Of a stretch of 64,000 nucleotides of DNA, positions 6,048-64,000 are shown in pieces. The notes beneath the pieces were generated by a model that searched no databases, was not told the DNA's origin, and saw nothing but the letters and a program-made list of their open reading frames with translations. How positions within the stretch are numbered: position 1 is the first letter of the stretch; each line of letters opens with the position of its first letter. Made by a program: the position numbers and the translations under genes. Origin of the DNA: Candidatus Porifericomitaceae bacterium (GTDB taxonomy: Bacteria > Pseudomonadota > Gammaproteobacteria > Porifericomitales > Porifericomitaceae); assembly GCA_965212005.1 (NCBI GenBank), contig OZ243038.1:1601440-1665439 (forward strand). The letters run 5' to 3'.

Positions 6048-6137
6048 ACTCAGCGGCGGCGTAGCCGTCCGCTGGAGTGATTTGTTAGGCGATTAATAAA
6101 AAATGGGGTAGCTTTCATCACCCCTACGGTTATTTAC

Positions 6138-6295
6138 TTAACTTTTGGAGGAGCGTTCCCACGCTTGTCGCCGGAAGGCTTCCTAATTTTTTTGGAAGGC
6201 AAGTTGTCGACAGGTCTTGAAGGTCCTCTGTCGCCACCTTTTCCTCTTCCACCGCTTCCTTCTTTGCTTCCGCCAGAACCACTTGATTTAGCCAT
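6138..6295 (-). CDS. small Gly/Lys-rich basic protein (52 aa), speculative
   Basis: Manual reverse translation MAKSSGSGGSKEGSGGRGKGGDRGPSRPVDNLPSKKIRKPSGDKRGNAPPKVK; below the ORF-track size cutoff; low-complexity, so could be spurious. Confidence 0.2.
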
Positions 6296-6572
6296 CAAGC
6301 CATCTCAATGTTAATGCACAGAGTAATAAAGAATTAAACAATCGCTGTGCGTTCAACTGCCCAACTATTAGTAGACAGCCTAGCATACTAAAAAACGCAG
6401 ACAAACACTTCCGTCTGCCAGGCAAGGATTTCTCCGATGAGCGGGTATTCCTCACAGGCGTATCCATTCTTGCGCCATTGGGCGGCATCCTCGACAAGTC
6501 TGTCGGATTGACAATTCCGCCGCGCTTCATTGCCCGGCTTTTAGGCCCGCGTTGGTTCAACGGACACGCGGG

Positions 6573-7472: not shown

Positions 7473-7477
7473 CTGCG

Positions 7478-48890: not shown

Positions 48891-49835
48891 TCAACTCTGG
48901 TCAAAGAAGTCTCCATCAATCGTTTTCACTTCATAGGTGTCGCGAACTTGCACACCGACGTTGTGCTTGTACATCAAATCGACCAATTTATCCCCGTCAA
49001 TGAGGATTATTGAGTAGGCCGCTTGACGCGCTTTTTTCAGTGCGTTATCACGAAAATCGGAAGTCGTGACAAAAATACCTTTGTTAGTGTCGCCGCTCAT
49101 TGCGCCAATAAAATCGCGAATGTCTTTTTCACTAACATTGGTGTCCTTATAGCGTTTTGCCTGTATGTAGATTTTCTCAAGGCCAAGTTCATCTGAGTTG
49201 ATTACCCCATCGATGCCGCCGTCCCAGGATTTTGGAGTTTCAATGAAATCTCCATAGCCCATTTTCTTCAGGAGTTGCAGGATAACGCTTTCAAAATAAG
49301 AAGGATCGGTTTTATGTAATTCTTCAAGAAGATCTCTTTTGGTTTGCTCTTCTATTGTAGACAGGCCAGCATCAATTAAATCCTGTGGGGATGCCTTTCC
49401 CAGATTTACTTCTTCCTGTGGGGATGCCTCTCCCAGATTTACTTCTTTTGGATCATTCACTTTGTCTGCTTTCTTTTTTGTTTTTCGGCTGGCAACGTGC
49501 GCCAAATAATCAGGATCATCTAATAAACTTTTGTATGTTATCCTTGTTGGCAAAGAAGATTTCCCTTTTTCTGTTATTTGTATCATCCCCCGTGAAGGAG
49601 AACTCAGAAAATTTGCCATCTTTAGATAAGATATGCCCCATCTGATGCGGTCATTCAATCTATTGGCACCGGAGCTTGTTATTTCTCTGAGTACGCTCTC
49701 TGGGAGTTCAGAATAATAGTTATCACGAACTTGAAGAATCAAATCGCGTGTACTCCATTCTTGCCTATCTTTCAGGGTTTTTTTCAGGGTTTTCAGGATA
49801 GGTGTATATGTTTGGTGGTGTTTGGGTAATTCCAT
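48891..49835 (-). CDS. mrr: Mrr-family restriction endonuclease (Mrr_N winged helix plus Mrr_cat)
   Basis: 314 aa; C-terminal SWDGGIDGVINSDELGLEKIYIQAKRY (D-(E)xK catalytic core of Mrr); low GC. Confidence 0.8.
   Translation of the reverse strand: MELPKHHQTYTPILKTLKKTLKDRQEWSTRDLILQVRDNYYSELPESVLREITSSGANRLNDRIRWGISYLKMANFLSSPSRGMIQITEKGKSSLPTRITYKSLLDDPDYLAHVASRKTKKKADKVNDPKEVNLGEASPQEEVNLGKASPQDLIDAGLSTIEEQTKRDLLEELHKTDPSYFESVILQLLKKMGYGDFIETPKSWDGGIDGVINSDELGLEKIYIQAKRYKDTNVSEKDIRDFIGAMSGDTNKGIFVTTSDFRDNALKKARQAAYSIILIDGDKLVDLMYKHNVGVQVRDTYEVKTIDGDFFDQS
49381..49446. repeat. in-frame 33-bp tandem duplication inside mrr linker
   Basis: cctgtggggatgcctttcccagatttacttctt x2 (1 mismatch) giving the duplicated peptide EVNLG(E/K)ASPQE. 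Confidence 0.85.
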
Positions 49836-49956: not shown

Positions 49957-50358
49957 TTATGCTGTCAAAGCAAGCCAAGCTTCCGCCGGTGTCTGATCAT
50001 CCAGACTCGAATGAGGCCGCTCCGCATTAGAATACATCATCCATACGTTGCTATCATCCCGTGGCCTCTCGAACCCTTTCCAGACATCGAAGTAACAAAC
50101 TCTCAAAATCTGCGCATTATCCATTGAAGCGAAATACGACTTGGTTGTCTTCAACAAAAAATATAATCGGCTTAGGGAAAAGCGTTCTGCCAATCTATGT
50201 GTCGCGGCGGCAATTGACACCGCACCCGCCCCACAAAATGGATCGAGCAGGCATCGGACGTCGGACGGAAACCACGGGAGGATGTATTGCGCAATGCGCC
50301 GTTTGCTTCCCCGATAGGGGAACGGGTGCGCGACATTAAGAGCGAAAACCATCGACAT
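49957..50358 (-). pseudogene. chimeric remnant: N-terminal fragment of a Dam-family N6-adenine DNA methyltransferase fused in frame to the tail of an IS3/rve-type transposase
   Basis: PFPYRGSKRRIAQYILPWFP...LLDPFCGAGAV (Dam motif I region) followed by ...VWMMYSNAERPHSSLDDQTPAEAW (integrase-core C-terminal signature). Confidence 0.5.
49996..50012. repeat. 17-bp direct repeat, copy 2
   Basis: See copy 1; lies within the transposase-tail coding remnant (encodes HSSLDDQ). Confidence 0.7.
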
Positions 50359-51040
50359 GATCCGAACTGCCGGCTCCCCTGTTGCGAGGACGTTTTATCG
50401 AAGACGAGAAACTGGACTTCTTATTTTTAATTGCCTTTACATGCTGAACATGAGCCCTGTTGTTTTTAATGTTAGCTCGCAGTCGGACTTTGCTGATTTT
50501 AGCGATGGTTTTCCTGATTTCCGTATTGGAAAGAATAGATTCGGTTTGAGACTTTATAAAACGTATAAGCCCGCCAGCATGGGTAACATTGCTTGGCATA
50601 TTTGTTTTGAAAGTGCTGTCGCCTACAAATACTACAACAGAAAATAATTTACTTTCGTGCATATTCAAACACGAAGATAATACTTTGATATGTTTGTAGT
50701 TCTGATGCAGAGGGTTTTGGAATGTGTATGTATGCTTGAATATCTTCTGAGTCCATTGTTTCTGACGAGCGGACCCAAAAATCCATCCTTTCATATTTTT
50801 TGTTTCGACCACAAAGATTCCATGTCTTGAAATAATGATGTGATCAATCTGGGTGCTCCCGTCCTCCGTTGGAAGCATTACATTCTTGAGTAGTTGATAT
50901 TTTTTTTTATCAAGCTGGAGCGAAAGTGCGACATTAACAATAAATTCACCCAATACCCCTTTGAACCAAGCAGTCTGTACAATCCCAATGATAATGAGAA
51001 AGAGAGAAGGTGCCAGTATGAGAAATGCTCCGATGCTCAT
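50336..51040 (-). CDS. NERD (nuclease-related domain) protein with N-terminal TM helix
   Basis: QIDHIIISRHGIFVVETKNMKGWIFG is the NERD core. Confidence 0.7.
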   Translation of the reverse strand: MSIGAFLILAPSLFLIIIGIVQTAWFKGVLGEFIVNVALSLQLDKKKYQLLKNVMLPTEDGSTQIDHIIISRHGIFVVETKNMKGWIFGSARQKQWTQKIFKHTYTFQNPLHQNYKHIKVLSSCLNMHESKLFSVVVFVGDSTFKTNMPSNVTHAGGLIRFIKSQTESILSNTEIRKTIAKISKVRLRANIKNNRAHVQHVKAIKNKKSSFSSSIKRPRNRGAGSSDHVDGFRS

Positions 51041-51746: not shown

Positions 51747-52814
51747 TTACTGCGACCGAGTGCGTTGACTGGTCATATTTTTTACCAGGTTAAGTTGCCA
51801 GATTTTTTCCGCCCTGGCCCCCAGGTACCAGAAGCTCAGAGCCAGCAGTGCAAAAAATACAGCTTTATGGGTGCCATCCCAGAAATATTCGAAGAACCTT
51901 GTATAAAGATTGATGAAGATAAAGGTTAAACCAAAGCCTCGGGTCATTCCGTTATCAAATTTTACGCCGTGAAAGATGCTTATAATTGATGCCGCACCAA
52001 AAACGATCGACCAGTGGAACAATTCTATTTGTTTTACTCTTTCCCACGATTCCATATCACCATAATTCCCGAAAATAGAGATGATCCAAAGCGCAATAAA
52101 GAGATAGAGCAAACCAACGGCTCGTGTTGGTTTCAGGAATTCATTTCGACTCGGCCAATGATTAAAAACATATTCGCCAACGAAAATGAGGGCTGAACCA
52201 AACAGTACGAAACGCAACGGATAATTCATGCCGAGATAGTACGCTCCCCAGCCTGAAGCGTAACCCGTTTCAGCCCCAAACCAACTGCCTAAGGAGAGCA
52301 GGGAAAATAACCAGACCAGTTTAGACGGAAACCATAGTCCCAACAGGGCATAAATGATGGCCGCCAGCAGCAATAAAACAGAGAAATGGCCGGAACCGGT
52401 ATCTATTACTTTGCCCAAAAATACAATGGCTGTGGCGGTAGCGACAATGCCTAAAAAGAATATGGCTTCATTGCTGTAAATCTTCTCCGGAAATCTACCC
52501 TTTCTTTTAAAGCCAAGGAAATATAGAAAGCTCGCCAGCATGGCGAAACTCGCACACTTGACCCCATCAGGCACGTTAAACAATCGCTTAAATAGCTCAA
52601 CGAGCCATTCATCCGCCAGTGCGGATGCTATGGAAATAACGATGCAGGCAATGGCCAGCCAGAAGGAATATCTTGCCGTGCGCTTCCAGTCAAACGGCGT
52701 GACTTCATAGGAATGCTTAAGTTTCTGTGATTCCTGCCCGGAAATAATCCCGGCATCAAGCCAGTTCTGAATAGCCGTGCTCAGTATGCGCCCTTCTTTT
52801 TTTGAAACTTGCAT
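51747..52814 (-). CDS. DUF2157-like polytopic membrane protein
   Basis: 355 aa, ~10 TM helices, soluble N-terminal region; low GC. Confidence 0.55.
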   Translation of the reverse strand: MQVSKKEGRILSTAIQNWLDAGIISGQESQKLKHSYEVTPFDWKRTARYSFWLAIACIVISIASALADEWLVELFKRLFNVPDGVKCASFAMLASFLYFLGFKRKGRFPEKIYSNEAIFFLGIVATATAIVFLGKVIDTGSGHFSVLLLLAAIIYALLGLWFPSKLVWLFSLLSLGSWFGAETGYASGWGAYYLGMNYPLRFVLFGSALIFVGEYVFNHWPSRNEFLKPTRAVGLLYLFIALWIISIFGNYGDMESWERVKQIELFHWSIVFGAASIISIFHGVKFDNGMTRGFGLTFIFINLYTRFFEYFWDGTHKAVFFALLALSFWYLGARAEKIWQLNLVKNMTSQRTRSQ

Positions 52815-53000
52815 TCAGTTTTAATCCTTGTAAATCTAACGATTATACTCATCGTGGCGCAGGGGTTCCCCGGATTTTTGTTAAGTTTGCCTTTGTCCAT
52901 GCGTAACCCACAGAGTCTATTTCTAACGGACAGATCCTAATTTTTTAGCCCCTTTCAGAGGCAGCGGTCGTCACGCTGATATCGGGAAAATCGCCGACGA

Positions 53001-53112
53001 AATATGATACCCTAGGCGGATGCCCCAACTCGAATACATTGAAGCCCTAGAAAAACGGTTGTGGCCCGCCGCGGACACCTTGCGCGCGAACTCCAACTAC
53101 GACCGATTCTGA
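53001..53112 (+). pseudogene. duplicated 5' end of hsdM (30-codon remnant, [30 protein letters not shown]) plus its upstream 12 bp
   Basis: ~93% identical over ~100 bp to 55094-55198 (start of the intact hsdM); the pair flanks the darTG cassette. Confidence 0.65.
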
Positions 53113-53122
53113 AGATCAGACG

Positions 53123-53782
53123 GTGGAGGAACTAAAAACCTTGACGACACCGGTACCTGCTGATCCCAAAATCTATCATATTGTCCATGTAGATCGGTTG
53201 CCTTCAATTATTACTGAAGGTGGTCTTTGGTGTGATTCGGAGATTGCGCAACGCAAGCGACCGGGATCAGTCATCGGCATGAATAATATCAAACAGAGAC
53301 GGCTTAATCTACGCTTGAGTAGCCGCCCTGATTTATATGTTGGGAATTGCGTTCCCTTCTATTTTTGTCCTCGTTCTATCATGCTTTACATGATCCATAT
53401 AAAAAGCCCTGACTTGTCCTACACTGGTGGGCAAGAAACTATTGTCCATTTGGAGGCATACGTTAAAGAGTCTGTGTCATGGGCGGAACAGAATGAAACA
53501 CGTTGGGCTTTTACTTCGTCAAATGCTGGCGCATGTACCTTTGATGACTATTGTGACCTGGGTGAATTGAATAAAATTGATTGGACAGCCGTGCAGGCAA
53601 AACAATGGGTAGATCATAAGTACGGTAAACAGGCGGAATTTCTGTTGGAAAGTTACTTTCCATGGGAATTAATAAAACGTATTGGTGTATATTCAGAGTC
53701 AATCTATTGTCAAGCGGTCAAAGCATTTCTTGCCAATAGTCACCGTCCACAAGTAAAGATAATAAAAGCTTGGTATTATTAA
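53123..53782 (+). CDS. darT: DarT ssDNA thymidine ADP-ribosyltransferase toxin (DUF4433)
   Basis: IYHIVHVDRLPSIITEGGLWC N-terminal motif; catalytic QAEFLL motif; C-terminal ...WYY. Confidence 0.8.
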   Translation: MEELKTLTTPVPADPKIYHIVHVDRLPSIITEGGLWCDSEIAQRKRPGSVIGMNNIKQRRLNLRLSSRPDLYVGNCVPFYFCPRSIMLYMIHIKSPDLSYTGGQETIVHLEAYVKESVSWAEQNETRWAFTSSNAGACTFDDYCDLGELNKIDWTAVQAKQWVDHKYGKQAEFLLESYFPWELIKRIGVYSESIYCQAVKAFLANSHRPQVKIIKAWYY

Positions 53783-53798
53783 TAGAAGGGCGACAACG

Positions 53799-54860
53799 AT
53801 GATCGAATACAAGCGCGGTGATCTTCTGAAAGAAGATACCGAAGCGATTGTTAATACGGTGAATTGCGTCGGTGTTATGGGTCGAGGTATCGCGCTTCAA
53901 TTCAAAAAATACTTTCCGCAAAACTTCAAGGCATACGCGGCTGCCTGCAAGCATAAAAAAGTGCGGCCCGGGCGAATGTTCACCTTTGAGATCGGCGAGT
54001 TGACTAATCCCCAATACATCATCAATTTCCCGACCAAACGGCATTGGCGAGGAGCAAGCCGAATAGAGGATATCGAATCCGGCTTGCATGCGTTGGTCGA
54101 AGAAATCAGAAAGCACAAGATCCGATCTGTCGCCATTCCTCCGCTGGGCAGCGGTCTAGGTGGACTGGACTGGCAACAGATTCGCGCCCGAATAGATACA
54201 ATTCTTGGGGAAATCGATGAGGTTCAGATCATCGTCTATGAGCCGGAAGGCGCACCGGAAGCGGGCAGAATGGTGCGCAATCGCAAGGTTCCGAAAATGA
54301 CCTCGGGGAGAGCGGCACTCGTCAGTTTGATGCACCGTTACCTTGCTGGCCTGCTTGACCCGTTTGTGACATTGCTGGAAGTGCATAAACTGATGTACTT
54401 CCTGCAGATTGCGGGGGAACCATTAAAATTAAACTACGAAAAAGCCCTTTACGGCCCCTACGCCAAAGACCTTCGACATGTACTCAACCATATTGAGGGG
54501 CACTTGGTGTCCGGTTACGCAGATGGTGGCGATATGCCCAACAAGGAATTAAAACTGGTGCCGGGCGCACTGGAGGACGCGAACAAATTTCTCAGGAATA
54601 AAGCGAAAACCCGAGCGCGCCTTGAAAAAATTTCTGGCCTTGTTGAGGGATTTGAATCACCGTTTGGCCTGGAATTACTATCCACGGCTCACTGGATCAT
54701 AAACAACGAATCGCCTCAATCCATTGATGACGTTATTGACAAAACCTATGCCTGGAACGAGCGTAAGAAGCAGTTTTCACCGCGTCAAATTCGGTTGGCT
54801 TGCGATGTATTGGCAAAACAGGACTGGATAGAAGCCAGCTTAACCGGCCAACCCGAATAA
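53799..54860 (+). CDS. darG: DarG antitoxin (N-terminal macrodomain, C-terminal DarT-binding domain)
   Basis: Macrodomain signature AIVNTVNCVGVMGRGIALQF ... IPPLGSGLGG; 17-bp gap after darT. Confidence 0.8.
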   Translation: MIEYKRGDLLKEDTEAIVNTVNCVGVMGRGIALQFKKYFPQNFKAYAAACKHKKVRPGRMFTFEIGELTNPQYIINFPTKRHWRGASRIEDIESGLHALVEEIRKHKIRSVAIPPLGSGLGGLDWQQIRARIDTILGEIDEVQIIVYEPEGAPEAGRMVRNRKVPKMTSGRAALVSLMHRYLAGLLDPFVTLLEVHKLMYFLQIAGEPLKLNYEKALYGPYAKDLRHVLNHIEGHLVSGYADGGDMPNKELKLVPGALEDANKFLRNKAKTRARLEKISGLVEGFESPFGLELLSTAHWIINNESPQSIDDVIDKTYAWNERKKQFSPRQIRLACDVLAKQDWIEASLTGQPE

Positions 54861-55108
54861 AGTGTCAATGAGTTGCAGAGCATGCATTATTTATACGATC
54901 AAGTGTCGGCGCTGTTCTGGATGACTGGAAAACAAGCGGTTGCCGCACATTCAGGTCGAAGATGGACTGGGCCACACAACGTTATTCCGTTACCCCTACC
55001 CGATTGAAACCTTGCGGTTCGGATCCGTATCACTTTCCACCCCGGTGAGGAGCGTTTCGAGGTGTGCAATCCGGCGATGCAAACCTTAAAAATACGGTAC
55101 CCTAGGCG

Positions 55109-57218
55109 GATGCCCCAACTCGAACACATCGAAGCCATTGAAAAACGGTTGTGGACCGCCGCGGATACCCTGCGCGCGAACTCCAACTACGCCAGCAACG
55201 AGTATTTCCTGCCGGTCATGGGGCTGCTTTTCCTGCGCCATGCGTACAGCCGTTTCCTGGCTGTCAAAGTCGGGATTGAGAAGAATCTGCCCACCCGTGG
55301 CGGTAAACCCCGGGCGTTGATTAAGGAGGACTTCTCCCAACTAGGCGCGATTTTCCTCCGGCCCAAAGCGCAGTTTGCTCGTTTGGTGGCGTTGCCCGAT
55401 GGTAAAGATCGCGCCAAAGCCATCATTGAGGCGATGGAATTCATCGAGAAGGACTACAGCAACTTGCGCGGCATCCTGCCCAAGAAAGAATACCAGGACT
55501 TAAGCAACGACGTCCTCGGCCAGTTGCTGCGCACGCTCAACCCCGATGAGTTGAAAAAAGTATCGGGCGACGTCTTCGGTCGTATCTACGAATATTTTCT
55601 GGCCAAGTTTGCCGACCAGAAAGCCCACGACAATGGCGAATTCTTCACGCCCGTTTCACTGGTGTCACTGATCGCCCATGTGCTGGACCCCGAGGGCGGC
55701 ACGGTGCTCGATCCGGCCTGCGGTTCCGGCGGCATGTTCGTGCAGAGCGCGCGCATCGTCGAGGAGCACGGTCAAAACCCCATCGACCGGCTCACCTTCC
55801 GCGGCCTTGAGAAGAACGCCACCACCATTCGCCTCGCCAAGATGAACCTCGCCGTCCACGGCCTGGAGGGGAATATTCAGAAAGCCATCACCTACTACGA
55901 AGACCCGCACGATCTGCGCGGCAAAGCCGATTTCGTCATGGCCAATCCCCCGTTCAACGTGGACGAGATTGACGCGGACAAAGTCAAGACCGACCCGCGT
56001 CTGCCTTTCGGTCTGCCTGGCGTGAGCAAAAAGGACAAGGTCAGCAACGGCAACTACGTCTGGATCAGTTACTTCTACAGTTACCTGAGCGCCAAGGGAC
56101 GCGCCGGTTTTGTCATGTCCTCCCAGGCCTCCAGCGCCGGGGGCGGTGAAGCACAGGTGCGGCGGAAACTGGTGGAAAGCGGCGATGTGGACGTCATGAT
56201 CGCGATTCGCTCCAACTTCTTCTACACCCGCACCGTGCCCTGCGAATTGTGGTTCTTGAACCGCGCCAAGCCGAAGGAACATCGCGACAAGGTGCTGATG
56301 ATTGATGCGCGCAACGTCTACCGGAAGGTCACGCGCAAAATCTACGACTTCAGCCCGGAGCAGCAGCAGAACCTGCTGGCCATCGTTTGGCTTTATCGCG
56401 GCCAGACCGACAAATATCTCGGCCTTGTGTCCGGCTACTGCGCCAGAGTCATCGCGGAAAGCGCGGCCTGTTTTACCGCCGCGAATGAGGAAAGCGAATC
56501 AATCCAACCGCTGCCGGATTTCCTCGCCGCGCTCACCGCCCTGCACAATACGCTGGAACCGTTTCTCAAGACCCTTAACCCCAAAGATGCTCATGCCGAA
56601 ACACACAAGGAACTGATGGATGCCCTTCCCGCCTTTGAAGCGGACGTGGGGGCCTTCCGCAAAGCGGTTGCCAAACAGCAGACGGCATGGGCAAAACAAA
56701 AAACCAATAACGGCGCACTCAAAAAAGCGGTAGCTCGACTTGCGCCACTGGCTGAATCAAGCCGCGACCTGGTCAAACAGACCGATCTGCTCTACAAACT
56801 CGCTTCGCGCCTTGTCGAAACCTGCGAACAGTCCGCCAAGACCAACGGCACCCGGATCGACAAGGAAGTTGCCCGCGCCCGCAAAGCCGCTGATGAGTCC
56901 AGACGGCAAGCCGTGGAACAACTCAAACAGGTGCACTACTTTTGGCGGCAAGCGCACTGGCTCACCAAGCGTTTCCCCGACGCCGAACTGCGCGACGTGG
57001 AAGGGCTGGTCAAACTGGTTGACCGCAAAGAGATTGAAGCAAACGACTGGAGCCTGACCCCCGGCCGCTACGTCGGCGTTGCGCCGGAAGAAGAAGACGA
57101 GAACTTTGATTTTGAGGAAACGATGCGGGACCTCCACACCGAGTTGAAAGCACTCAACGCCGAAGCAGCCACGCTGGCGGCGGCCATTGATAAGAATTTT
57201 AAGGAAATGGGGATATGA
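55109..57218 (+). CDS. hsdM: type I restriction-modification system DNA methyltransferase subunit M
   Basis: HsdM_N motif [15 protein letters not shown]; SAM motif [10 protein letters not shown]; catalytic NPPF (VMANPPFNV); C-terminal [11 protein letters not shown]. Confidence 0.9.
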
Positions 57219-57740
57219 GCGGCGATAGAAAAATCGTCATCATCGCCGGCCCCAACGGTGCGGGTAAAACGACGTTCGCACGGGAATTCCTGCCCAAAGA
57301 ATCCGGCTGTTTGATTTTTATCAACGCCGACCTGATCGCAGGTGGCCTGTCTCCCTTTCAACCGGAAGCCGCCGCCATCCGTGCCGGGCGGCCTGATGCT
57401 GCAACAAATTGACAACTACGTAAAAAAGGGTGAAAGTTTTGCCTTTGAAACAACGCTTGCGAGTCTTGGGTACGTAAAAAAGATAAAAAAGTGGCGTGCA
57501 GTAGACTATAAGGTCAAACTGATTTTTTTGTCGCTTGCAACGCCCGAAGAGGCGACTAACCGAGTAAAATCACGTGTGGCGCAGGGTGGACACCCTATTC
57601 CAGAAGCCATAATACGCCGCCGATTTTCCAACGGCTTGAATAATTTTGAAAACATCTATCGCCACTGTGTGGATTATTGGCAACTCATCAATAACAGCAG
57701 TGCCATCCCGATCCTGATTGAGAAAGGAGAAAACCCATGA
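57215..57740 (+). pseudogene. zeta-toxin-like / AAA ATPase gene, split by a single-base frameshift near 57395
   Basis: ORF 57215-57412 ([19 protein letters not shown]...NADLIA...AAIRAGR) and ORF 57342-57740 (...[24 protein letters not shown]...) are contiguous in homologues; an extra C in the run gggcggcc shifts the frame; ATG overlaps hsdM stop. Confidence 0.6.
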
Positions 57741-57925
57741 AAAAACAAACTAGGCGCACTGCCATCGAGGATGACCCGGATATGCAAGGCGTCATGCCCG
57801 CTCTCCTCCGCGCGGCTAAACAGGCTCACAAAATTGCCCACCAGACAGGCACTAAAATTGTCATCATGCGCGACGGCAAGGTCGTGCACGTCCCCCCGGA
57901 CCCGGCGATGTATGAGGATATTTAA
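57737..57925 (+). CDS. small hypothetical protein (62 aa), translationally coupled (ATGA) to the preceding gene
   Basis: ORF only; could be an antitoxin-like partner of the zeta-like ATPase. Confidence 0.3.
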   Translation: MKKQTRRTAIEDDPDMQGVMPALLRAAKQAHKIAHQTGTKIVIMRDGKVVHVPPDPAMYEDI

Positions 57926-57956
57926 ACTTGGTTGGGCATGAAGAAAAATTGCAGAT

Positions 57957-58415
57957 ATGAGCAAAGCGCCGCCATACACGATCACCCCGCACATTCTCAC
58001 CCGCATTGAGCAAATCGGTGAAGCGATTGGCCGTGCGGAGGCGGCGGGCGTTTCACAGGATATGCGCTTGCGGCACATCAATCGCATCCGCACGATTCAC
58101 GGTACGCTTGCCATGGCGGGCAATGCCCTCAGCGTGGAACAAGTCGCCGCAATTTTCGATACAATGCATACCCCCCAAGAAGCCCCCCAAGTAACCTCCC
58201 AAGTAGAACGCTTGCTGTCGGTGCTTAAAGGTAAAGGGGAAATGTCACGGCAGGAAATCCAGCAGGCGATTGGGTTGAAAGACCGCAAGTCATTGCGGGA
58301 GCGGTATCTGTTGCCTGCATTACAAGGCGGATATATTGAAATGACGCAACCTGATACGCCTAATGCCAGGAATCAGAAGTATCGGCTTAGTTCGCGTGGG
58401 AGGGGGATGCGGTGA
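57957..58415 (+). CDS. Fic-family protein remnant: N-terminal helices and C-terminal winged helix retained, catalytic HPFx(D/E)GNGR core deleted in frame
   Basis: N-terminus ITPHILTRIEQIGEAIG...HGTLAMAGNALS and C-terminus LKDRKSLRERYLLPALQGGYIEMTQPDTPNARNQKYRL match RM-associated Fic proteins, but the total is only 152 aa. Confidence 0.5.
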   Translation: MSKAPPYTITPHILTRIEQIGEAIGRAEAAGVSQDMRLRHINRIRTIHGTLAMAGNALSVEQVAAIFDTMHTPQEAPQVTSQVERLLSVLKGKGEMSRQEIQQAIGLKDRKSLRERYLLPALQGGYIEMTQPDTPNARNQKYRLSSRGRGMR

Positions 58416-58437
58416 AAGACTTTAGGATGTTAAGAGC

Positions 58438-59646
58438 ATGAGAAGTTCACCCCTAACATCTCTTGCGGATATTGCTGAATCAGTTCAATACGGATACACC
58501 GCATCAGCATCCGATGCAGAAATAGGCCCAAAATTTCTACGCATCACAGATATCGTTCCTTCTCAAATTAACTGGGACACTGTTCCCTATTGCGAGATAG
58601 ATGAAACAACATTCGCAAGATTTTCCCTTGCGCCGAATGACATCGTCATAGCTCGTACAGGTGCAACTGTCGGATATGCCAAACTGATTCGAGACAATAA
58701 ACAATCCGTTTTTGCATCATATCTTGTTAGAGTTAGAGTTGATCCTGATAAGGCGGAGCCTGGCTACGTTGGGCTGATTGTTGAATCGAACGTTTACAAA
58801 CGTTTCGTTCGTTCACGTGTAGGGGGTGCAGCCCAACCTAATGCAAACGCAAAAGTTCTGTCGTCCTTTAAGTTCACTCTTCCTGAAAGATCAGTTCAGA
58901 TTCGGATTACTGCTATCTTATCTGCCTACGATGACCTGATCGAAAACAACCGACGACGAATTCAGTTACTGGAACAGTCAGCACGACTACTCTACAAAGA
59001 GTGGTTCGTCCACCTCCGCTTCCCCGGCCACGAACACACCACCATCACCGACGGCGTACCGGAGGGGTGGGAGCGGAAGAGTTACTCTGATTTGTTTAGA
59101 TTTCTCGGGGGATTCGCATTCAAAAGTGAAACTTATCAGATAGAAGGGAAGTTTGGGATTGTCACCATCAAAAATGTTCACGATGCGCGATTCATCACTG
59201 AGTGCCAATCAAGGCTTGATGATATACCAGAGAAAATGAAAGAACATTGCTCTCTTAACGCTGGGGATATCTTGTTGTCCCTAACCGGCAATGTTGGACG
59301 AGCATGTATTGTATTTGGCAATAATTATCTACTGAATCAGCGTGTAGCCAAAGTGGTTGGCAATAGTGGTATTTCTCGAAGCTTCACGTACTGGACATTT
59401 AGCAATGAAACGATCCAGAAAGAGCTGGAAAATCTCGCGTACGGTGTCGCGCAATTAAATCTTAGTCCAGTCAAACTGGGAAAAATAGAGTTCTTGAAAC
59501 CTTCGAGAAAGTTATTGGAGTTATTTGAAAAAATGACTGCCCCAATATTTCAGCAAATTATCACACTTAATTTGCAAATAGATCAAACTACCCAAGCACG
59601 CGACCTACTCCTGCCACGCCTTTTGAATGGGGTGGTCTCCGTATGA
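58438..59646 (+). CDS. hsdS: type I restriction-modification system specificity subunit S
   Basis: 402 aa; two target-recognition domains separated by the conserved central helix (LIENNRRRIQLLEQSARLLYKEWFVHLRFPGHE) and a C-terminal conserved helix. Confidence 0.85.
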   Translation: MRSSPLTSLADIAESVQYGYTASASDAEIGPKFLRITDIVPSQINWDTVPYCEIDETTFARFSLAPNDIVIARTGATVGYAKLIRDNKQSVFASYLVRVRVDPDKAEPGYVGLIVESNVYKRFVRSRVGGAAQPNANAKVLSSFKFTLPERSVQIRITAILSAYDDLIENNRRRIQLLEQSARLLYKEWFVHLRFPGHEHTTITDGVPEGWERKSYSDLFRFLGGFAFKSETYQIEGKFGIVTIKNVHDARFITECQSRLDDIPEKMKEHCSLNAGDILLSLTGNVGRACIVFGNNYLLNQRVAKVVGNSGISRSFTYWTFSNETIQKELENLAYGVAQLNLSPVKLGKIEFLKPSRKLLELFEKMTAPIFQQIITLNLQIDQTTQARDLLLPRLLNGVVSV

Positions 59647-59745
59647 TGCTTGTAGAATTAACCAACTTTATCGCTCTTGGTGAAAAAGTAATACCGTTTC
59701 TATGCGGAGGAACGGACTTTGTTCTAAAAGAGTAGCTGTTTGATT

Positions 59746-61533
59746 ATGCGCCCGATCCACTGGTTACATCTTTCCGACCTTCACATGAGAGAGCGAGACT
59801 CGTGGTCTCAGGATATAGTTCTCAAGGCAATGCATGATCATATTTATAAGGATTTTTCTGAAGGTATTAAAGCAGACTTTATTCTCGTGACGGGAGATCT
59901 TACTTTTTCCGGTAGGGCTACTGAATACCGCTTGGTGGAGGAGTTTTTCGATGCACTCAGCATAGCATCAAGAGTCACGAAGGAATCTATATACTGTATT
60001 CCCGGAAATCACGATATTGATCGCGATCGTAATAAACTATGTTTTGAGGGTGCTCGTAAAGTTCTGCAAAACATGAGCGCGGTTGATAGTCTTCTCGAAG
60101 GGCAAGATGATTTGGAGACGCTGGCCACACGACAGGAAAACTACCGAAGATTTCAAGAGGCATATTTTTCAGAACAGAAGAGAATTGGTACAGAAGATCA
60201 GCTTGGATACGTTTCAAGAATCACACTTGACGACGTGCACATAGCGATTGTTGGACTGAATTCAGCTTGGTTGGCAGAAGGCGGCCTAGCTGATCATGGA
60301 AAACTCCTAATCGGTGAACGACAGGTAATCAATGCTATTAACTTAATCAAGAAACACGATCAACGTCCTCACATAATTATTGGCATGGCTCATCATCCTC
60401 TTCATCTTCTCTGTGAGTTTGATCGTAGGCCAGTCCAAAATCGTATTGAAGAATTTTGCCACTTTTTTCACTTTGGACATTTACATCAGTCCGAAACTCG
60501 CACATCAGGATTCAGTGGCTCCGGTTGCCTGACACTTGGTGCCGGTGCATCGTTTGAGACGCGCCAGTCTCACAATAGCTATTCTGTCGTTACACTCGAT
60601 TTATTGCAGGCACTTCGGACAGTTATGACTATCAAGTTTGATCCGAACAATAGTATGTTCTCGTCTACTGCTTCCGAAGAATATCGCATTGAAGTGAACC
60701 CGCAAGATATCTATGGTGTGGACGAACTTGCAGGGACCATGAAAGGTTATTGCACTTCACTTGGTCAATGGCCTCATTATCTATCGGCTCTGTTATTGGG
60801 TCAGAAGTCGGAAGTACTCATTTGCACATCAGACGATTATGCATTTGGATCGCTTGCCGTTTCTCAGGCGCCTCCTGTTAGTGATTTACAGGAAAAAACA
60901 AACAGCTTCATGGCGTTTAAAAATGTACTATGTGTATTGCACAAGGACATTCCCCTTGCAGATATCTTTACCCGTTATGGCGATATGGTTCGTGAATATG
61001 GAGTCGTTTTAGAGCAGATAAGCAATGCACAACCGAACATCAAGGCTCGTTTGCTGGAATATGAAGATGATGCGAGAAAACTGGTGAATGCTAATCGCCT
61101 CGAATTTTTCTCTTACACCTTCTCTCTTCTTGACAATCTAGCTTACACGAAAGATTGGGGGCTCTTACGTGAGCAGGCACAACGCCATATTAGTTCATAT
61201 AATTCAAAATTAGCCGCCCATGCAAAACGAATGTTAGCTCTTAGCTTGGCTAATTCATATGAAGAAGAAGACAAAAATAACGCGATCAAACTTTATCAGT
61301 CGCTGATTGAAAGTGGCGTTGTAGAATTCACTGATGTGGGCAATTTTTCTACACTTCTTATGAATGTTGGAAGGTTAGAAGAAGCCAAAACCGTTACACT
61401 TCGTGGTATTGAACAGTTTCCTGTAGAACATATAAGGTACTTCACTGATATAGGACGCAAAATTGTTGAAGAATCAGGAGATCGTGTGTTTCGCGATGCA
61501 TTGGAGACAATTATCAAAGAGAAAAAATTATGA
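59746..61533 (+). CDS. calcineurin-like metallophosphoesterase with ~270-aa alpha-helical (TPR-like) C-terminal extension
   Basis: Motifs LSDLH (D-x-H), GDLT (GD), GNHD, GHLH; low GC; 100 bp after hsdS. Confidence 0.7.
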   Translation: MRPIHWLHLSDLHMRERDSWSQDIVLKAMHDHIYKDFSEGIKADFILVTGDLTFSGRATEYRLVEEFFDALSIASRVTKESIYCIPGNHDIDRDRNKLCFEGARKVLQNMSAVDSLLEGQDDLETLATRQENYRRFQEAYFSEQKRIGTEDQLGYVSRITLDDVHIAIVGLNSAWLAEGGLADHGKLLIGERQVINAINLIKKHDQRPHIIIGMAHHPLHLLCEFDRRPVQNRIEEFCHFFHFGHLHQSETRTSGFSGSGCLTLGAGASFETRQSHNSYSVVTLDLLQALRTVMTIKFDPNNSMFSSTASEEYRIEVNPQDIYGVDELAGTMKGYCTSLGQWPHYLSALLLGQKSEVLICTSDDYAFGSLAVSQAPPVSDLQEKTNSFMAFKNVLCVLHKDIPLADIFTRYGDMVREYGVVLEQISNAQPNIKARLLEYEDDARKLVNANRLEFFSYTFSLLDNLAYTKDWGLLREQAQRHISSYNSKLAAHAKRMLALSLANSYEEEDKNNAIKLYQSLIESGVVEFTDVGNFSTLLMNVGRLEEAKTVTLRGIEQFPVEHIRYFTDIGRKIVEESGDRVFRDALETIIKEKKL

Positions 61534-63785
61534 CTGAAAAATCCTCATCGTTCCCGATGGGTGTCGAATTCCAAAGCATACTGAGCGCAATTTCCAAGCA
61601 GATATATGAGACACCTTTTGCTTTTATCCGAGAAAATGCCCAGAACGCAGTGGATGCTATTCGTATTCAAGCATACCGAGAAGGACTTGAACCGCGAGAC
61701 GAGCGTTACAGAATTGATGTTACCGCAAGCGATCGGAAAATCATTGTAAGTGATAACGGTATAGGTATGTCGGAGAGCGAACTAAAGAGCTTTTTCTGGA
61801 CGATCGGAGCTAGTGGAAAAAGGACAGAAGAAGCATTTTCTGCAGGTTGCGTTGGTATCTTTGGAATCGGAGGCTTCGCCAACCTCGGTGTTTGTGACAG
61901 ACTAGATGTGATTTCCCGAACAGAAGAGGCTACACATGGAATACGGACGTGGATTTCAGCATCAGACATAAAGGAAGCAGGTTCTACAATCCCTTCTGTG
62001 AGCAGCGAATCCTCTGACACAGTAACGGATAGAGGTACAATTGTAACTGGTCATTTGCGGGAGGTGGTAAATATTGACGAACTCCGCCGCTATTTAGAAA
62101 GTTTCGTACGCTTCACGCCGATTTCGATTTATTTCAATAATCGAAAGTTATCACAGGTTGAATTTTCGAATATCGAGGATAGTGAAAATCTAACCAAGAT
62201 AAAAAATATTGACCAACAATGGGGTGAAGGAAATATTCTAATAACGGGAAAGTTCTACGAGGACAGGGGGCATGCGCTTGTAGCGATGATTAATAATATT
62301 AGTATCAATGGGGAAATTGTCAATTTTATTGGCCAGATCAGATTCGAGAATGGACCGATAGATGTGTTCAAACACGGCTTCAAGCTTTGTGCGACAAAGA
62401 TAGGTAGTGCTATTGGTATATCGGGGCGCATAGATTGTGATCGTTTTTCTCCCACAGCAGGTCGTGATTCGCTGGATGCATCTACAACTAGCCTTTTGAG
62501 TCAGGCCGTTCTAGTACTACAAAAAATCGCAGTTGAGATAGTCCTACAAACACCTGAACGGATCGCTCAGCACACTCGCATATTTAGTTACATCATCAGA
62601 AATGGACTTTTGAGTAAACTTGATAATGTAAAAGTTAATCTCGCAGATGGATCAGAATTGTCCCTTGGCGATATCCGCAGAAAATCAGAAGGAGGCGTTG
62701 GTGTATTTTTTGGGTTCGCGAAAAAAGAGGGCCTGAATCAAATTATGCAGGCACGAGGTCATCTTGTTGTACTTCTATCCTCCGACCGTAACCGCCAGAA
62801 CGCAGAACGCCAGTATCTTGAGCAATACTGCTCTGCGAAACCATTCGATGGAATAGTTGATTGTGCTGAAGATTATGAAAATTTAAGTCGATTTGAGCAG
62901 ATTGTACTCAGCGAATTGGAGCTCAACATCACCACATCGTACGAGATAAAAACCGATCACTTCCGCCTTATTCCAGGAAAGTTGACTGAAGACATACCCG
63001 TTTTTATTAAAGAGGTCAGCGGTAGCCAGAAAATAGACATCTTTGTCGATGTTCGTCACTCAGAAATTGCTAAATTGGAAACTCTTGGGTTTACACAGAT
63101 TCTATACTCGTTGATTGCTACTTTCTGTCGCGAGTACCTCGGCTCGTCCCTCAAAAAATGGAGTCCGCGCTTCTTTGGAGATGGTGCTCTTAATCTTGAG
63201 CTTCTGGCCAAACACCGATCAGAACTTTGGGTATTGGTCAAGGATGATATTGGGGTTGTTCATAGAGGGGGGGAACGGGAAGTTGTAAGACACTCAGATG
63301 TACAGGTCGTTAACGTAAGCGACAGGCAGAACCCGGCAAAGCAATCTTCAGACGAAGAATGCCCACGCATTCTCCACATAATTGATGAGAAAGATACGGT
63401 GAAAATTTCTGGTTACTATATACGACTTCGAGATTCTGCTTTTAAGGCCCACGGTGACCTGATAGTTGGATATGAGAGTCTCGGTGTAGTCTGGGCTGGG
63501 AACAAAGTACTATACGTGGCATCCGACACTTTCAGTGCTACATTTCAATATGAAATCCGTCTAGATAGATTAGTAACTGTTGATTGCGACGGTGAGCTAC
63601 GAGCGGAGGGCGCGATACAACTTGATAAATCCTTGCAACAAATGTTCAATGGTCTGTATTTCTCAATACCTGATTCTTTAGTACCATTTCTTGTGCCTCA
63701 AGGTAATGAAGAAATACGTTTGGAGTTACTCACTGAGTGGTACGACATAAACACCGCTAGACGCTGGACTCCCAAAGAAACATAA
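61530..63785 (+). CDS. Hsp90/HtpG-like GHKL (Bergerat-fold) ATPase, 751 aa
   Basis: N box ENAQNAVDAIR (cf. Hsp90 ELISNASDALDKIR); G1 box IVSDNGIGMSESEL (cf. IVDTGIGMTKADL); TIGASGKR (cf. TIAKSGTK); G2 GIFGIGGFANL; start overlaps the phosphoesterase stop (ATGA). Confidence 0.7.
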   Translation: MTEKSSSFPMGVEFQSILSAISKQIYETPFAFIRENAQNAVDAIRIQAYREGLEPRDERYRIDVTASDRKIIVSDNGIGMSESELKSFFWTIGASGKRTEEAFSAGCVGIFGIGGFANLGVCDRLDVISRTEEATHGIRTWISASDIKEAGSTIPSVSSESSDTVTDRGTIVTGHLREVVNIDELRRYLESFVRFTPISIYFNNRKLSQVEFSNIEDSENLTKIKNIDQQWGEGNILITGKFYEDRGHALVAMINNISINGEIVNFIGQIRFENGPIDVFKHGFKLCATKIGSAIGISGRIDCDRFSPTAGRDSLDASTTSLLSQAVLVLQKIAVEIVLQTPERIAQHTRIFSYIIRNGLLSKLDNVKVNLADGSELSLGDIRRKSEGGVGVFFGFAKKEGLNQIMQARGHLVVLLSSDRNRQNAERQYLEQYCSAKPFDGIVDCAEDYENLSRFEQIVLSELELNITTSYEIKTDHFRLIPGKLTEDIPVFIKEVSGSQKIDIFVDVRHSEIAKLETLGFTQILYSLIATFCREYLGSSLKKWSPRFFGDGALNLELLAKHRSELWVLVKDDIGVVHRGGEREVVRHSDVQVVNVSDRQNPAKQSSDEECPRILHIIDEKDTVKISGYYIRLRDSAFKAHGDLIVGYESLGVVWAGNKVLYVASDTFSATFQYEIRLDRLVTVDCDGELRAEGAIQLDKSLQQMFNGLYFSIPDSLVPFLVPQGNEEIRLELLTEWYDINTARRWTPKET

Positions 63786-64000
63786 ATTTGCCTGAGAATG
63801 TCTGTGGTAACATAAAGAGAATTTTCGCTACCGAGTGCAGTGATTGGATTTCAGATAGGTATAAATTCAAAATCCTCAATGGCTCCACATCGGCAAAGCG
63901 GGTAGATGGAACGTTTACATGCCTTGATTGAGTGAAAAAGTGCCCGCCGATTAGCACGCATGGGCTGGACGGAACCACAGTTACAACCCATTTCCCGGTG

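Follow-up and report, generated by a model that had tools for sequence, protein, structure and literature searches.

A conserved metallophosphoesterase and Hsp90-like GHKL ATPase gene pair: a candidate immune module on mobile DNA

Genetic organization of the locus

Two adjacent genes encoding a metallophosphoesterase (MPE) and an Hsp90-like ATPase of the GHKL type lie directly downstream of hsdS, close to the end of the window, by which we mean the whole 64-kb stretch of DNA that was analysed (it ends at 64000). They belong to an island in which most 2-kb bins have a GC content of 0.43-0.47 and hsdM one of 0.54-0.55, with values of about 0.6 outside. Pfam searches and GC bins bear out the original prediction of a low-GC island holding Mrr, NERD, DarTG and HsdMS, as do the coordinates for two genes that overlap by the 4 nt ATGA after hsdS. 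The features are listed below.

48891-49835, Mrr, confirmed upstream in the island
50336-51040, NERD, confirmed in the island
53123-53782, DarT, confirmed in the island
53799-54860, DarG, confirmed in the island
55062-59646, + strand, type I restriction-modification (R-M) neighbours: hsdM, zeta-toxin fragment, Fic remnant, hsdS (Pfam)
55062-57218, + strand, HsdM (Pfam)
58438-59646, + strand, HsdS (Pfam)
59647-59745, + strand, 99-bp spacer between hsdS and gene 1 (sequence)
59746-61533, + strand, gene 1, MPE of 595 aa, predicted effector (ORF list)
59746-60690, + strand, catalytic domain of the MPE (residues ~1-315) carrying the full set of five metal-ligand motifs of the calcineurin type
60691-61530, + strand, helical linker and TPR-like repeats, residues ~316-595 (AF2, profile matches)
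61530-61533, + strand, ATGA stop/start overlap of genes 1 and 2, predicted translational coupling (from ORF coordinates)
61530-63785, + strand, gene 2, Hsp90-like GHKL ATPase of 751 aa, predicted ATP-driven switch, sensor or clamp (ORF list)
61530-62129, + strand, Hsp90-type ATPase domain with the GHKL (Bergerat) fold, residues ~1-200
62130-62564, + strand, beta-rich transducer-like region with invariant P308-T-A-G-R312
62565-63782, + strand, C-terminal ~400 residues, no fold assigned (no Pfam, NCBIfam or PDB sequence match)

Gene 1 starts at the ATG at 59746, because its homologues begin with M-R-P-I; a TTG start at 59740 was rejected as an ORF-caller artefact. Consensus scans, which are not evidence of function, detected a weak terminator-like hairpin (59694-59715) and no promoter-like site in the spacer, and there is no translational coupling between hsdS and the pair. 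The zeta-toxin fragment and the Fic remnant are decayed genes lying between hsdM and hsdS. The pair had been described as embedded in a type I R-M locus: it does adjoin hsdS, but no hsdR homologue was found anywhere in the window and most homologous pairs have no hsd neighbours, so that the hsd genes are context whose membership in the module is unproven.

The metallophosphoesterase

Both Pfam families expected from the original prediction were found, namely Metallophos in gene 1 (1.1e-8; 36 bits, cutoff 21.5) and HATPase_c_3 in gene 2 (4.8e-10). The metal-ligand motifs of gene 1 (D11-x-H13, G50-D51, G87-N88-H89-D90, H216-H217 and G244-H245-x-H247), all but H216-H217 recognized at the outset, are invariant in 24 homologues, and distant clades and DS-8-like proteins retain them as well. 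The proposed helical, TPR-like tail was likewise recovered, as the AF2 model (pLDDT 82.6) shows only helices in the C-terminal half and TPR proteins match at profile positions 485-571. In a homologue from a Pseudomonas aeruginosa plasmid, HEAT-like repeats take the place of TPR in this half. More than 1200 homologues of ~595 aa exist, and their mean pairwise identity is 0.42 in the catalytic domain versus only 0.24-0.26 in the C-terminal half. This variable helical half is a candidate sensor or partner-docking region.

Foldseek searches with the MPE returned Bacillus subtilis YydB (1.7e-14), Rv0805 (1.6e-8), GpdQ (~1e-6) and Mre11/SbcD (1e-6 or weaker). Over the whole protein, YydB gives the best structural match, with 502 aligned columns that include the helical C-terminal part. 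These neighbours are compatible with both nuclease and small-molecule phosphodiesterase activity and do not separate the two.

Neither protein reaches a named-family cutoff in PADLOC v2 or NCBIfam 2026, as anticipated, and a literature search found no publication on the MPE/GHKL pairing. The MPE domain nevertheless matches PADLOC PDC-S60 (156 bits, 3.2e-46, N-terminal domain only), NCBIfam DS8 (NF053861; 143 bits, 8.1e-42, profile positions 1-295) and DS9_1 (84 bits), the DS8 score of gene 1 being far under the family cutoff of 790 bits. On plasmids, the domain has relatives of 1033-1065 aa that unite an MPE with a STAND NTPase and align with the DS8 model across profile positions 1-859. MPE catalytic mutants of DS-8 and DS-9A lose phage defence (PMC13092281). 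Judged by sequence similarity, the MPE domain of gene 1 falls into the same clade as the effector domain of DS-8, a validated defence protein, and this reinforces the earlier idea of an effector working with an ATPase.

The GHKL ATPase

Gene 2 had been predicted to combine an Hsp90-like N-terminal part with a remainder foreign to HtpG, and all comparisons agree. HtpG/HSP90 models match residues 9-216 only (62-86 bits versus cutoffs of 371-455), a PDB profile search retrieves Hsp90 N-domains at 2e-17, and an hhalign comparison with genuine HtpG is confined to columns 8-200. Both sequence and structure place Hsp90 closer to this domain than MutL, topo VI or MORC, and the suggested analogy with topo VI is correspondingly weak. 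The nucleotide-binding motifs comprise an N box (R34-E35-N36..N39..D42), a G1 box (D75-G77-G79), a lid (W90/G93/K97), a G2 box (G109..G112-I-G114) and G169-T170. The N, G1, lid, G2 and G3 motifs are kept across the family together with the TAGR core of PTAGR, of which R312 is a candidate gamma-phosphate finger.

Past the ATPase domain, the remaining ~550 residues have no relatives in Pfam, NCBIfam or PDB sequence searches, and the AF2 pLDDT below 50 for the C-terminal two-thirds allows no fold inference. The C-terminal region is as conserved as the ATPase domain (mean pairwise identity 0.44-0.58) and ends in W-x-D-x-x-T-A-K/R-x-W followed by a short, variable and often acidic tail. A second catalytic site is not evident, because W655 is the sole residue of this region that is invariant family-wide. 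Among defence models the GHKL protein has no significant match (best, MzaB, E 4e-4, 17 bits), and Pfam and NCBIfam detect no DNA-binding domain in either gene product.

A co-inherited and mobile gene pair

The adjacency that the original prediction proposed to examine in other genomes is strict: in 64 of the 67 informative genome loci, which span ~13 phyla, the MPE gene immediately precedes the GHKL gene. In 41 full-length homologous loci, the two genes most often overlap by 4 or 8 nt, and an exhaustive search at E<=1e-30 yielded 188 GHKL clusters and no MPE fusion. Pairwise identities of the two proteins correlate (Mantel r = 0.94, a value reached by none of 2000 permutations), the GHKL protein being the more conserved partner. 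The pairing is kept in clades at 20-27% identity, including distant pairs on a P. aeruginosa megaplasmid (483 + 772 aa) and on a mobilisable element (481 + 789 aa) and a further one of 535 + 772 aa. The MPE and the GHKL protein are a tightly coupled, co-inherited and co-diverging unit, and both enzymes are under selection, given the intact catalytic motifs across the family.

Gene 2 has more than 869 homologues of ~750 aa, with 62-68% identity across phyla. Proteins 60-68% identical in unrelated phyla indicate horizontal transfer, and the distribution is sporadic and within low-GC islands. Searches of 2.9 million viral contigs and of phage genomes did not find the pair. The flanks vary and include integrases, transposases, type I R-M, BREX brxL, MTase-HNH, SoFic, AbiE and EcoRII, while resolvases and relaxases are also frequent alongside the integrases and transposases. 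The pair is thus a horizontally mobile unit found in defence or mobile-element contexts, although many flanks have no recognisable defence gene and no single type of mobile element is consistently linked.

Proposed function

On balance, we lean towards the pair being a self-contained, horizontally mobile, two-protein module directed against phages or mobile elements, in which an NTPase switch would control a toxic effector. The defence assignment is inferred from genomic context and domain homology. Gene 1 would be the effector, a predicted active binuclear-metal phosphoesterase whose substrate may be a phosphodiester in nucleic acid or in a molecule derived from nucleotides, and its fast-evolving helical/TPR half could dock on the partner, recognise the trigger, or both. 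Gene 2 probably dimerises and opens and closes in an ATP-dependent cycle; its architecture as a clamp or dimer is assumed by analogy with other GHKL families. This cycle would sense an infection cue, such as a phage protein or DNA held in the clamp, and would then license the phosphoesterase. An Hsp90-like ATPase acting in trans would thereby replace the cis-fused STAND NTPase of DS-8. The pair is probably an unnamed immune module, as predicted from sequence and context.

Alternative explanations

First, the pair could be a guard or backup of methylation-based immunity that relies on a type I R-M or BREX system next to it and triggers an abortive response when phage anti-restriction proteins block that system. 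PrrC within the EcoprrI locus and PARIS, which senses Ocr, are cases of this kind. R-M or BREX operons repeatedly carry the pair at their 3' end, on the same strand. The order of hsd genes, MPE and GHKL seen in the window recurs in four loci, namely L011 (hsdR-M-S, then the pair, on the same strand), L038 and L053 (hsdM-S-R, then the pair) and L070, which like L072 carries the pair at the 3' end of a type I R-M system; brxL precedes the pair in L021 and L063 and lies nearby in L067. MTase-HNH occurs in five loci, type III MTases are encoded by three flanking genes, and a Dcm-Vsr-EcoRII cluster adjoins a distant pair. Still, only ~10% of the homologous pairs are hsd-linked, a proportion that ordinary defence-island clustering could yield, most have no R-M or BREX gene in adjacent position, and the systems that are linked belong to several unrelated kinds. 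Within the window itself, the spacer and its hairpin part hsdS from the pair, the hsd locus contains decayed genes and no visible hsdR, and there is no evidence for co-divergence of the pair with hsd genes. A guard function is therefore rather unlikely.

Second, the pair could process or repair DNA ends or maintain mobile elements, like Mre11-Rad50/SbcCD or topo VI, with a GHKL dimer clamping DNA and the MPE cutting it in the service of the carrier element rather than of immunity. The Mre11 and SbcD structural neighbours (E 1e-6 to 1e-4), weak NCBIfam sbcd and Mre11 matches and the integrases, transposases, resolvases and relaxases that often adjoin the pair are consistent with such a machine. 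Against it, the sbcd model scores only 18.9 bits versus a cutoff of 77.65, and Rv0805, GpdQ and YydB outrank Mre11/SbcD, which weakens the Mre11/Rad50 analogy drawn originally. Moreover, Hsp90 outranks every DNA-acting GHKL, DNA-binding domains are undetectable, the nearest sequence relatives of the MPE are validated defence effectors, and the carriers are of no fixed type. We regard a role of this sort as quite unlikely.

Third, a non-immune Hsp90 paralogue and its TPR phosphatase co-factor, regulating client proteins under stress by analogy with eukaryotic Hsp90-PP5, is an explanation that we judge very unlikely. The Hsp90-class N-domain, a partner uniting TPR with a calcineurin-superfamily domain, and the conserved terminal motif with its short, often acidic tail recall such a couple, but homology to HtpG ends at about residue 200 with scores well under the HtpG cutoffs, the distribution is sporadic and horizontal, and the MPE falls into the DS-8/PDC-S60 effector clade rather than among PPP protein phosphatases. 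Besides, no chaperone or heat-shock neighbours were seen near the pairs, whereas true htpG loci on plasmids have Hsp20 or GroEL next to them.

Finally, an addiction (toxin-antitoxin-like) module of islands and plasmids with the MPE as toxin and the GHKL protein as neutraliser would fit two tightly coupled genes on plasmids, islands and mobilisable elements, where DarTG, the zeta-toxin fragment and AbiE show that such modules gather, but is highly improbable, since the very large size of both proteins (595 and 751 aa) and their full enzymatic motifs are atypical for antitoxins, and the ATPase is the more conserved partner; this idea overlaps with abortive-infection defence and is compatible with it.

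Comparison with known systems

The preferred reading, a two-protein immune module, can be set against several known systems. Mre11-Rad50/SbcCD likewise couples a calcineurin-fold phosphoesterase to a dimerising ATPase from an adjacent gene, and Mre11/SbcD are structural neighbours of the MPE, albeit more remote than phosphodiesterases and YydB; however, the ATPase of the pair is of the GHKL and not the ABC/SMC class, and there is no coiled-coil partner. Hsp90/HtpG shares the class of the N-terminal ATPase domain, by sequence and structure, but its middle and C-terminal domains have no detectable homology in gene 2, and the pair is sporadic and island-borne. PP5 has TPR repeats together with a catalytic domain of the calcineurin superfamily. 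Gene 1 joins the same two kinds of module, but in the reversed order and with an MPE that is not a PPP-family protein phosphatase.

MORC and paraMORC proteins, to which gene 2 is linked by its HATPase_c_3 match, occur in R-M contexts and have a transducer domain that provides a basic finger residue (Iyer, Abhiman & Aravind 2008; PMC2292703). Their partners are SF2 helicases and REase, HNH or HKD nucleases, with no calcineurin-type phosphoesterase (PMC2292703), and the ATPase of gene 2 is nearer to Hsp90 than to MORC or MutL. The uncharacterised yydBCD operon of B. subtilis is Rok-silenced foreign DNA in which YydB cross-links and co-elutes with its partner YydD. The MPEs of the distant pairs (481-483 aa) match YydB in size, but yydBCD has a third gene, YydD is not present among the GHKL-model matches, and the pair has no sequence-level match to the YydB/YydD PDB entries.

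Two of the systems compared are validated against phages. In VcSduA, a type I-D Shedu, a paraMORC3 GHKL ATPase is fused to a DUF4263 nuclease, both activities are needed for defence and a clamp-like dimer is proposed to control the effector (PMC12137116); in our pair, too, a hydrolytic effector would work with a GHKL ATPase. DS-8 (NF053861; PADLOC candidate PDC-S60) shares with the pair a homologous MPE effector domain and residence on mobile DNA, and its MPE catalytic residues and NTPase are both essential for phage defence. It is nonetheless a single protein of ~1000 aa with a fused NACHT/STAND P-loop NTPase, whereas the effector of the pair bears a helical/TPR tail and its NTPase is a separate Hsp90-like GHKL protein.

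Position of the pair in the low-GC island

Two plus-strand open reading frames, laid out as the original prediction had described them, form the right end of the low-GC island:

59746-61533 (+), gene 1, metallophosphoesterase (MPE), 595 aa
61530-63785 (+), gene 2, GHKL ATPase, 751 aa

The stop codon of gene 1 and the start codon of gene 2 overlap in an ATGA, and the ATG at 59746 is the true start of gene 1 because its homologues start with M-R-P-I. Gene 1 is separated from hsdS (stop at 59646) by a 99-bp spacer containing a weak hairpin; the pair therefore adjoins hsdS without being translationally coupled to it. The island has a GC content of 0.43-0.47 in most 2-kb bins and of 0.54-0.55 over hsdM, against ~0.6 in the rest of the window, and the defence genes ascribed to it (those of Mrr, NERD, DarT, DarG, HsdM and HsdS) were all found there. 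The GC content climbs again at ~63.9 kb and a minus-strand terminator-like hairpin lies at 63957-63940, which suggests that the island may stop directly after gene 2.

The placement of the pair inside a type I restriction-modification (R-M) locus stands only in part: the pair does adjoin hsdS, but no hsdR homologue was found anywhere in the 64-kb window, and hsd genes are adjacent in only ~7 of at least 67 homologous loci. The type I locus may consist of hsdMS only, or hsdR may lie beyond the window. The region downstream of the pair in a close relative lent no support to an hsdR just past the window: the helicase that it encodes is not HsdR-like, and the end of the window bears no similarity to it.

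The island has several other features:

49957-50358, decayed gene, Dam fragment
51747-52814 (-), 355-aa open reading frame between NERD and DarT, hydrophobic over many stretches and unmatched in Pfam
52999-53100 (+), duplicated N-terminal segment of HsdM, shortly before darT (53123)
57342-57740, decayed gene, zeta-toxin fragment
57957-58415, decayed gene, Fic remnant

The duplicated HsdM segment corresponds to residues 10-43 and shares 85% amino-acid identity with the real hsdM at 55062, which suggests that the DarTG cassette entered at the 5' end of hsdM and duplicated its target there. The Dam fragment is a 133-aa open reading frame next to NERD that matches nothing but the N-terminal ~40 positions in the Dam (D12-class) methyltransferase model. 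The zeta-toxin fragment and the Fic remnant, which has the C-terminal domain only and no catalytic Fic core, lie between hsdM and hsdS.

Gene 1, a metallophosphoesterase with a variable helical half

Gene 1 belongs to the calcineurin-like metallophosphoesterase superfamily, as indicated by its Pfam Metallophos score (36.2 bits, cutoff 21.5), its motifs and a model that matches MPE structures. The calcineurin-type metal ligands predicted for it are indeed complete, all five motifs (DxH, GD, GNH[DE], H, GHxH) being invariant in 24 homologues and kept in the most distant clades as well as in DS-8-like proteins. In the AF2 model (pLDDT 82.6), the MPE fold occupies residues ~1-315 and is followed by helical hairpins up to residue 595. 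The anticipated TPR-like tail was recovered too, with TPR proteins matched at profile positions 485-571. Among PDB structures, the protein resembles Bacillus subtilis YydB most closely, in the integrative YydD-YydB model (Foldseek E 1.7e-14, 502 aligned columns). The phosphodiesterases Rv0805, Lmo2642 and GpdQ come next, together with purple acid phosphatase, ahead of Mre11 and SbcD.

At the domain level only, and far under the family cutoffs, the catalytic domain matches the PADLOC model PDC-S60 (3e-46), a CBASS-type "Effector/Endonuclease" model (3e-23), and the NCBIfam models DS8 (8e-42) and DS9_1 (9e-24). Plasmid-borne relatives of this domain are MPE + STAND NTPase proteins of 1033-1065 aa, which align with the greater part of the DS8 model. 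The helical/TPR half is the least conserved part of gene 1 (mean pairwise identity 0.24-0.26, versus 0.42 for the catalytic domain) and is either TPR, as in the window protein, or HEAT-like, as in the plasmid clade, a pattern that suits a role in recognition or docking.

Gene 2, an Hsp90-type GHKL ATPase

Gene 2 has an Hsp90-type GHKL N-terminal domain. It matches Pfam HATPase_c_3, a PDB profile search returned Hsp90 N-domains at 2e-17, and hhalign against three genuine HtpGs aligned columns 8-200 with 99% probability and nothing beyond. The HtpG likeness thus ends at column 200, in agreement with the expectation of an Hsp90/HtpG-like N-terminal part joined to non-HtpG C-terminal two-thirds. 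A full-length Hsp90/HtpG was rejected based on scores of 61.7 bits against the NCBIfam HtpG model (cutoff 371) and 86.3 bits against the NCBIfam HSP90-family model (cutoff 455), both confined to residues 9-216, and homology to the Hsp90 middle domain was rejected given that the alignments with the genuine HtpGs returned the N-domain only. No PDB sequence match was found for the C-terminal 551 aa, and no relatives of the last ~400 residues were detected in Pfam, NCBIfam or PDB sequences. These ~400 residues are as conserved as the ATPase domain (mean pairwise identity 0.44-0.58). The AF2 model, built with 22 closely related sequences, has a pLDDT of 48 and is confident only at residues ~30-270.

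In an alignment of 44 sequences reaching down to ~20% identity, the N box, G1, lid, G2 and G3, a P-T-A-G-R motif at 308-312, F284 and W655 are invariant; the proline of P-T-A-G-R is replaced by valine in a distant homologue outside this alignment (L081). As GHKL transducer domains supply a gamma-phosphate finger residue (PMC2292703), the arginine of TAGR is a plausible candidate for this function, and we conjecture that PTAGR is the counterpart of the NxSRE loop of Hsp90. Almost nothing is invariant family-wide outside the ATPase region, so that no second catalytic site is apparent. The C-terminus carries a conserved W-x-D-x-x-T-A-K/R-x-W, then a short, variable and often acidic tail.

Conservation and spread of the pair

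An alignment-based scan of one genome per species yielded 71 loci; a genome scan for GHKL relatives with a single sequence as query returned no matches, hence an alignment query was needed. Conserved adjacency, which had been proposed as a check, is the rule: of the 67 loci whose upstream sequence is long enough, 64 have a MPE homologue directly before the GHKL gene, mostly with 4- or 8-nt overlaps at the junction. These loci span Pseudomonadota, Acidobacteriota, Nitrospirota, Planctomycetota, Gemmatimonadota, Poribacteria, Chloroflexota, Spirochaetota, Desulfobacterota, Latescibacterota, Actinomycetota and Myxococcota. Inserted DNA of 0.85-4.3 kb breaks up the MPE or parts it from the GHKL gene in three of the 64 (coordinates local to each locus):

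L018, MPE split, 5371-6516 and 7363-7998
L022, MPE split, 1894-2904 and 7225-7989
L065, 880-bp gap ahead of the GHKL gene

These insertions are possibly mobile elements that inactivate a costly or toxic effector.

The two proteins have diverged together, their pairwise identities being correlated with r = 0.94, a value reached in none of 2000 permutations. The pairing continues in clades at 20-27% identity, in which the catalytic motifs are all intact:

Pseudomonas aeruginosa megaplasmid pair, 483 + 772 aa, beside an ABC-three-component system
Mobilisable-element pair, 481 + 789 aa, in 74 collection blocks, beside Dcm-Vsr-EcoRII
Further distant pair, 535 + 772 aa

An exhaustive profile search produced 188 clusters (50% identity) with E<=1e-30, and no MPE-GHKL fusion was present among its top 150 representatives. 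Proteins at 60-68% identity are common to unrelated phyla, which indicates horizontal spread. Phage genomes and 2.9 million viral contigs (IMG/VR) contain essentially no members of the family, and none were found in complete E. coli genomes.

Genetic neighbourhood of homologous pairs

The flanks of the pair vary between loci, and no conserved third gene was found beside it across the homologous loci. Integrases recur beside it at 9 loci, type I hsd genes at ~7, MTase-HNH at 5, and BREX brxL, a SNF2-PLD protein and SoFic at 3 each, along with SIR2, resolvases and transposases; AbiEi/AbiEii and a large serine recombinase occur near close relatives of the pair. The order hsd genes, MPE, GHKL recurs in Burkholderiales, Acidimicrobiaceae, Myxococcota and Dehalococcoidia, and brxL followed by the pair recurs twice. 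In two close relatives (67% identity; L093, 4404-10367, and L094, 4429-7701), the next gene after the pair, on the same strand, encodes a DEAD/ResIII helicase of 1090 aa without likeness to HsdR; in L093 an AbiEi/AbiEii pair follows this gene. A distant pair on IncP-type megaplasmids (L076, P. aeruginosa plasmid pPUV-9, 1-2368 and 5544-9313) has an annotated "ABC-three component system" ~3 kb away and a MvaT-family silencer nearby. This plasmid of a clinical species thereby carries a defence-like cluster.

Loci of an Acidiphilium-type subclade have a Fic gene, encoding 387-410 aa, only 1-2 nt upstream of the MPE gene:

L001, 5061-6224, Fic gene
L004, 4984-6216, Fic gene
L075, 6167-7327, Fic gene

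The match of its product to the PADLOC SoFic model spans almost the full profile (E 2e-21 to 3e-24). Since it is confined to a small subclade and matches a stand-alone defence model, Fic was not retained as a core component; it may be a second defence gene stacked onto the pair, or a third component specific to this clade. The Fic remnant of the window is a different, decayed gene.

A putative effector module and its alternatives

Genomic context and homology point to a putative anti-phage defence system. We lean, if only slightly, toward a module whose effector is switched by a NTPase. The MPE would be the effector because it is homologous to the effectors of DS-8 and DS-9 and its active site is invariant; its substrate could be a nucleic acid or a nucleotide-derived small molecule. 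The GHKL protein would act as the conserved engine, and the helical/TPR half of the MPE as the recognition or docking part. We infer that the two proteins form a complex in which the ATPase controls the phosphoesterase upon perception of a trigger, thereby conferring defence.

Eukaryotic HSP90 works with TPR co-factors (PP5, SGT1). By extension, the Hsp90-class ATPase could be a genuine bacterial immune sensor or regulator whose conserved C-terminal region and tail recruit the TPR-bearing phosphoesterase effector, as a prokaryotic counterpart of HSP90 and its co-factors that is interchangeable in function with the NLR-like STAND module of DS-8, and the pair may serve as a specific backup of type I R-M and BREX that senses the anti-restriction proteins disabling the two systems. 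Taken as a whole, this scheme is rather unlikely.

Repeated addition of the pair at the 3' end of R-M or BREX operons would also suit a guard devoted to these systems, yet most pairs have no R-M or BREX neighbours, and we judge this reading unlikely as well. More doubtful is a Mre11/Rad50-like DNA-processing machine serving mobile elements. The likeness to Mre11/Rad50 initially noted proved weak, Hsp90 and the phosphodiesterases being closer: gene 1 was rejected as Mre11/SbcD with 18.9 bits against the sbcd model (cutoff 77.65) and 15.5 against Mre11 (cutoff 600), and its partner is a GHKL protein, not Rad50/SbcC. A non-immune chaperone and phosphatase couple akin to Hsp90-PP5 is quite improbable, contradicted as it is by a sporadic, island-borne distribution and by the clade of the MPE. 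Finally, a toxin-antitoxin-like addiction module is the least probable explanation of all.

Novelty and significance

The pairing had not been recognised as a named system, and neither protein reaches any named-family cutoff in PADLOC v2 (2023) or NCBIfam (June 2026); gene 2 has no significant match to any defence model searched. No description of this pairing was found by searching the literature or in the paper that first described GHKL ATPases of R-M contexts (PMC2292703). The logic of a NTPase coupled to an effector is already known and the effector clade is validated; what is new is the Hsp90-class engine provided in trans and its TPR/HEAT-tailed phosphoesterase partner. Public databases label the GHKL homologues "molecular chaperone HtpG" or "ATP-binding protein" and the MPE homologues "3',5'-cyclic AMP phosphodiesterase CpdA" or "metallophosphoesterase", with "DUF924 family" also among the labels of the pair. 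Considering that the underlying matches are partial and sub-threshold, such labels are likely misleading misannotations.

If confirmed, the pair would add a widespread defence system, with ~190 clusters at 50% identity in at least 13 phyla, whose regulator is a Hsp90-type ATPase. To our knowledge, ATPases of this type have not yet been shown to act in prokaryotic immunity. The phosphoesterase effector of DS-8 would then prove able to work with either of two unrelated NTPase engines, a STAND domain in cis or a GHKL protein in trans, and so give a clear example of how immune systems swap modules. The pair would let the substrate of this effector clade be studied in a simpler two-protein setting, allow a test of bacterial antecedents for the Hsp90-TPR partnerships of eukaryotic immunity, and give a first functional lead on the uncharacterised yydBCD operon of B. 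subtilis.

Comparison with known systems

DS-8 (MPE + NACHT) and DS-9 (MPE + HAD) are validated anti-phage systems in which the catalytic residues of the MPE are essential for defence (PMC13092281). DS-8 joins the MPE and a NACHT/STAND NTPase in one protein of ~1000 aa, and its genuine relatives carry nSTAND domains, whereas gene 1 has no P-loop or STAND domain. Gene 1 was accordingly rejected as DS-8 (NF053861), whose model gives it 143 bits (cutoff 790) over positions 1-295 of 994, and as PDC-S60, of which positions 3-312 of 1027 are covered. The pair was likewise rejected as DS-9 (NF053862 DS9_1), with 84 bits against a cutoff of 420 and a GHKL ATPase in place of the HAD phosphatase as neighbour.

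Other assignments failed on the side of gene 2 or of the pair. Gene 2 was rejected as one of the MORC/paraMORC ATPases, which are defined by MORC/MutL-like kin, a MORC-specific motif after the S5 transducer domain, and helicase and nuclease partners. Identity with MzaB of Gao Mza was rejected on scores of 14 bits with the NCBIfam model (cutoff 850) and 17 bits with the PADLOC model (E 4e-4), and the homologous loci have no conserved additional genes of the kind that Mza would require (mzaACDE partners). The pair is not a type I R-M subunit either, having no homology to HsdR, HsdM or HsdS.

The two-part MPE architecture of gene 1 is matched by YydB of B. subtilis, an uncharacterised protein that cross-links and co-elutes with its operon partner YydD (co-elution 0.90, 0.86; PDB 9a6c) and whose operon, yydBCD, is silenced by Rok. 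The likeness concerns the MPE half, and YydD was not seen among the matches of the GHKL model. In this model organism, yydBCD may represent a related, as yet unstudied, module. Finally, Shedu type I-D (VcSduA-like) was rejected, since neither protein has a DUF4263 or other nuclease domain. VcSduA, a validated GHKL ATPase fused to a Shedu nuclease with both activities required (PMC12137116), is nevertheless a precedent for an immune hydrolase gated by a GHKL ATPase.
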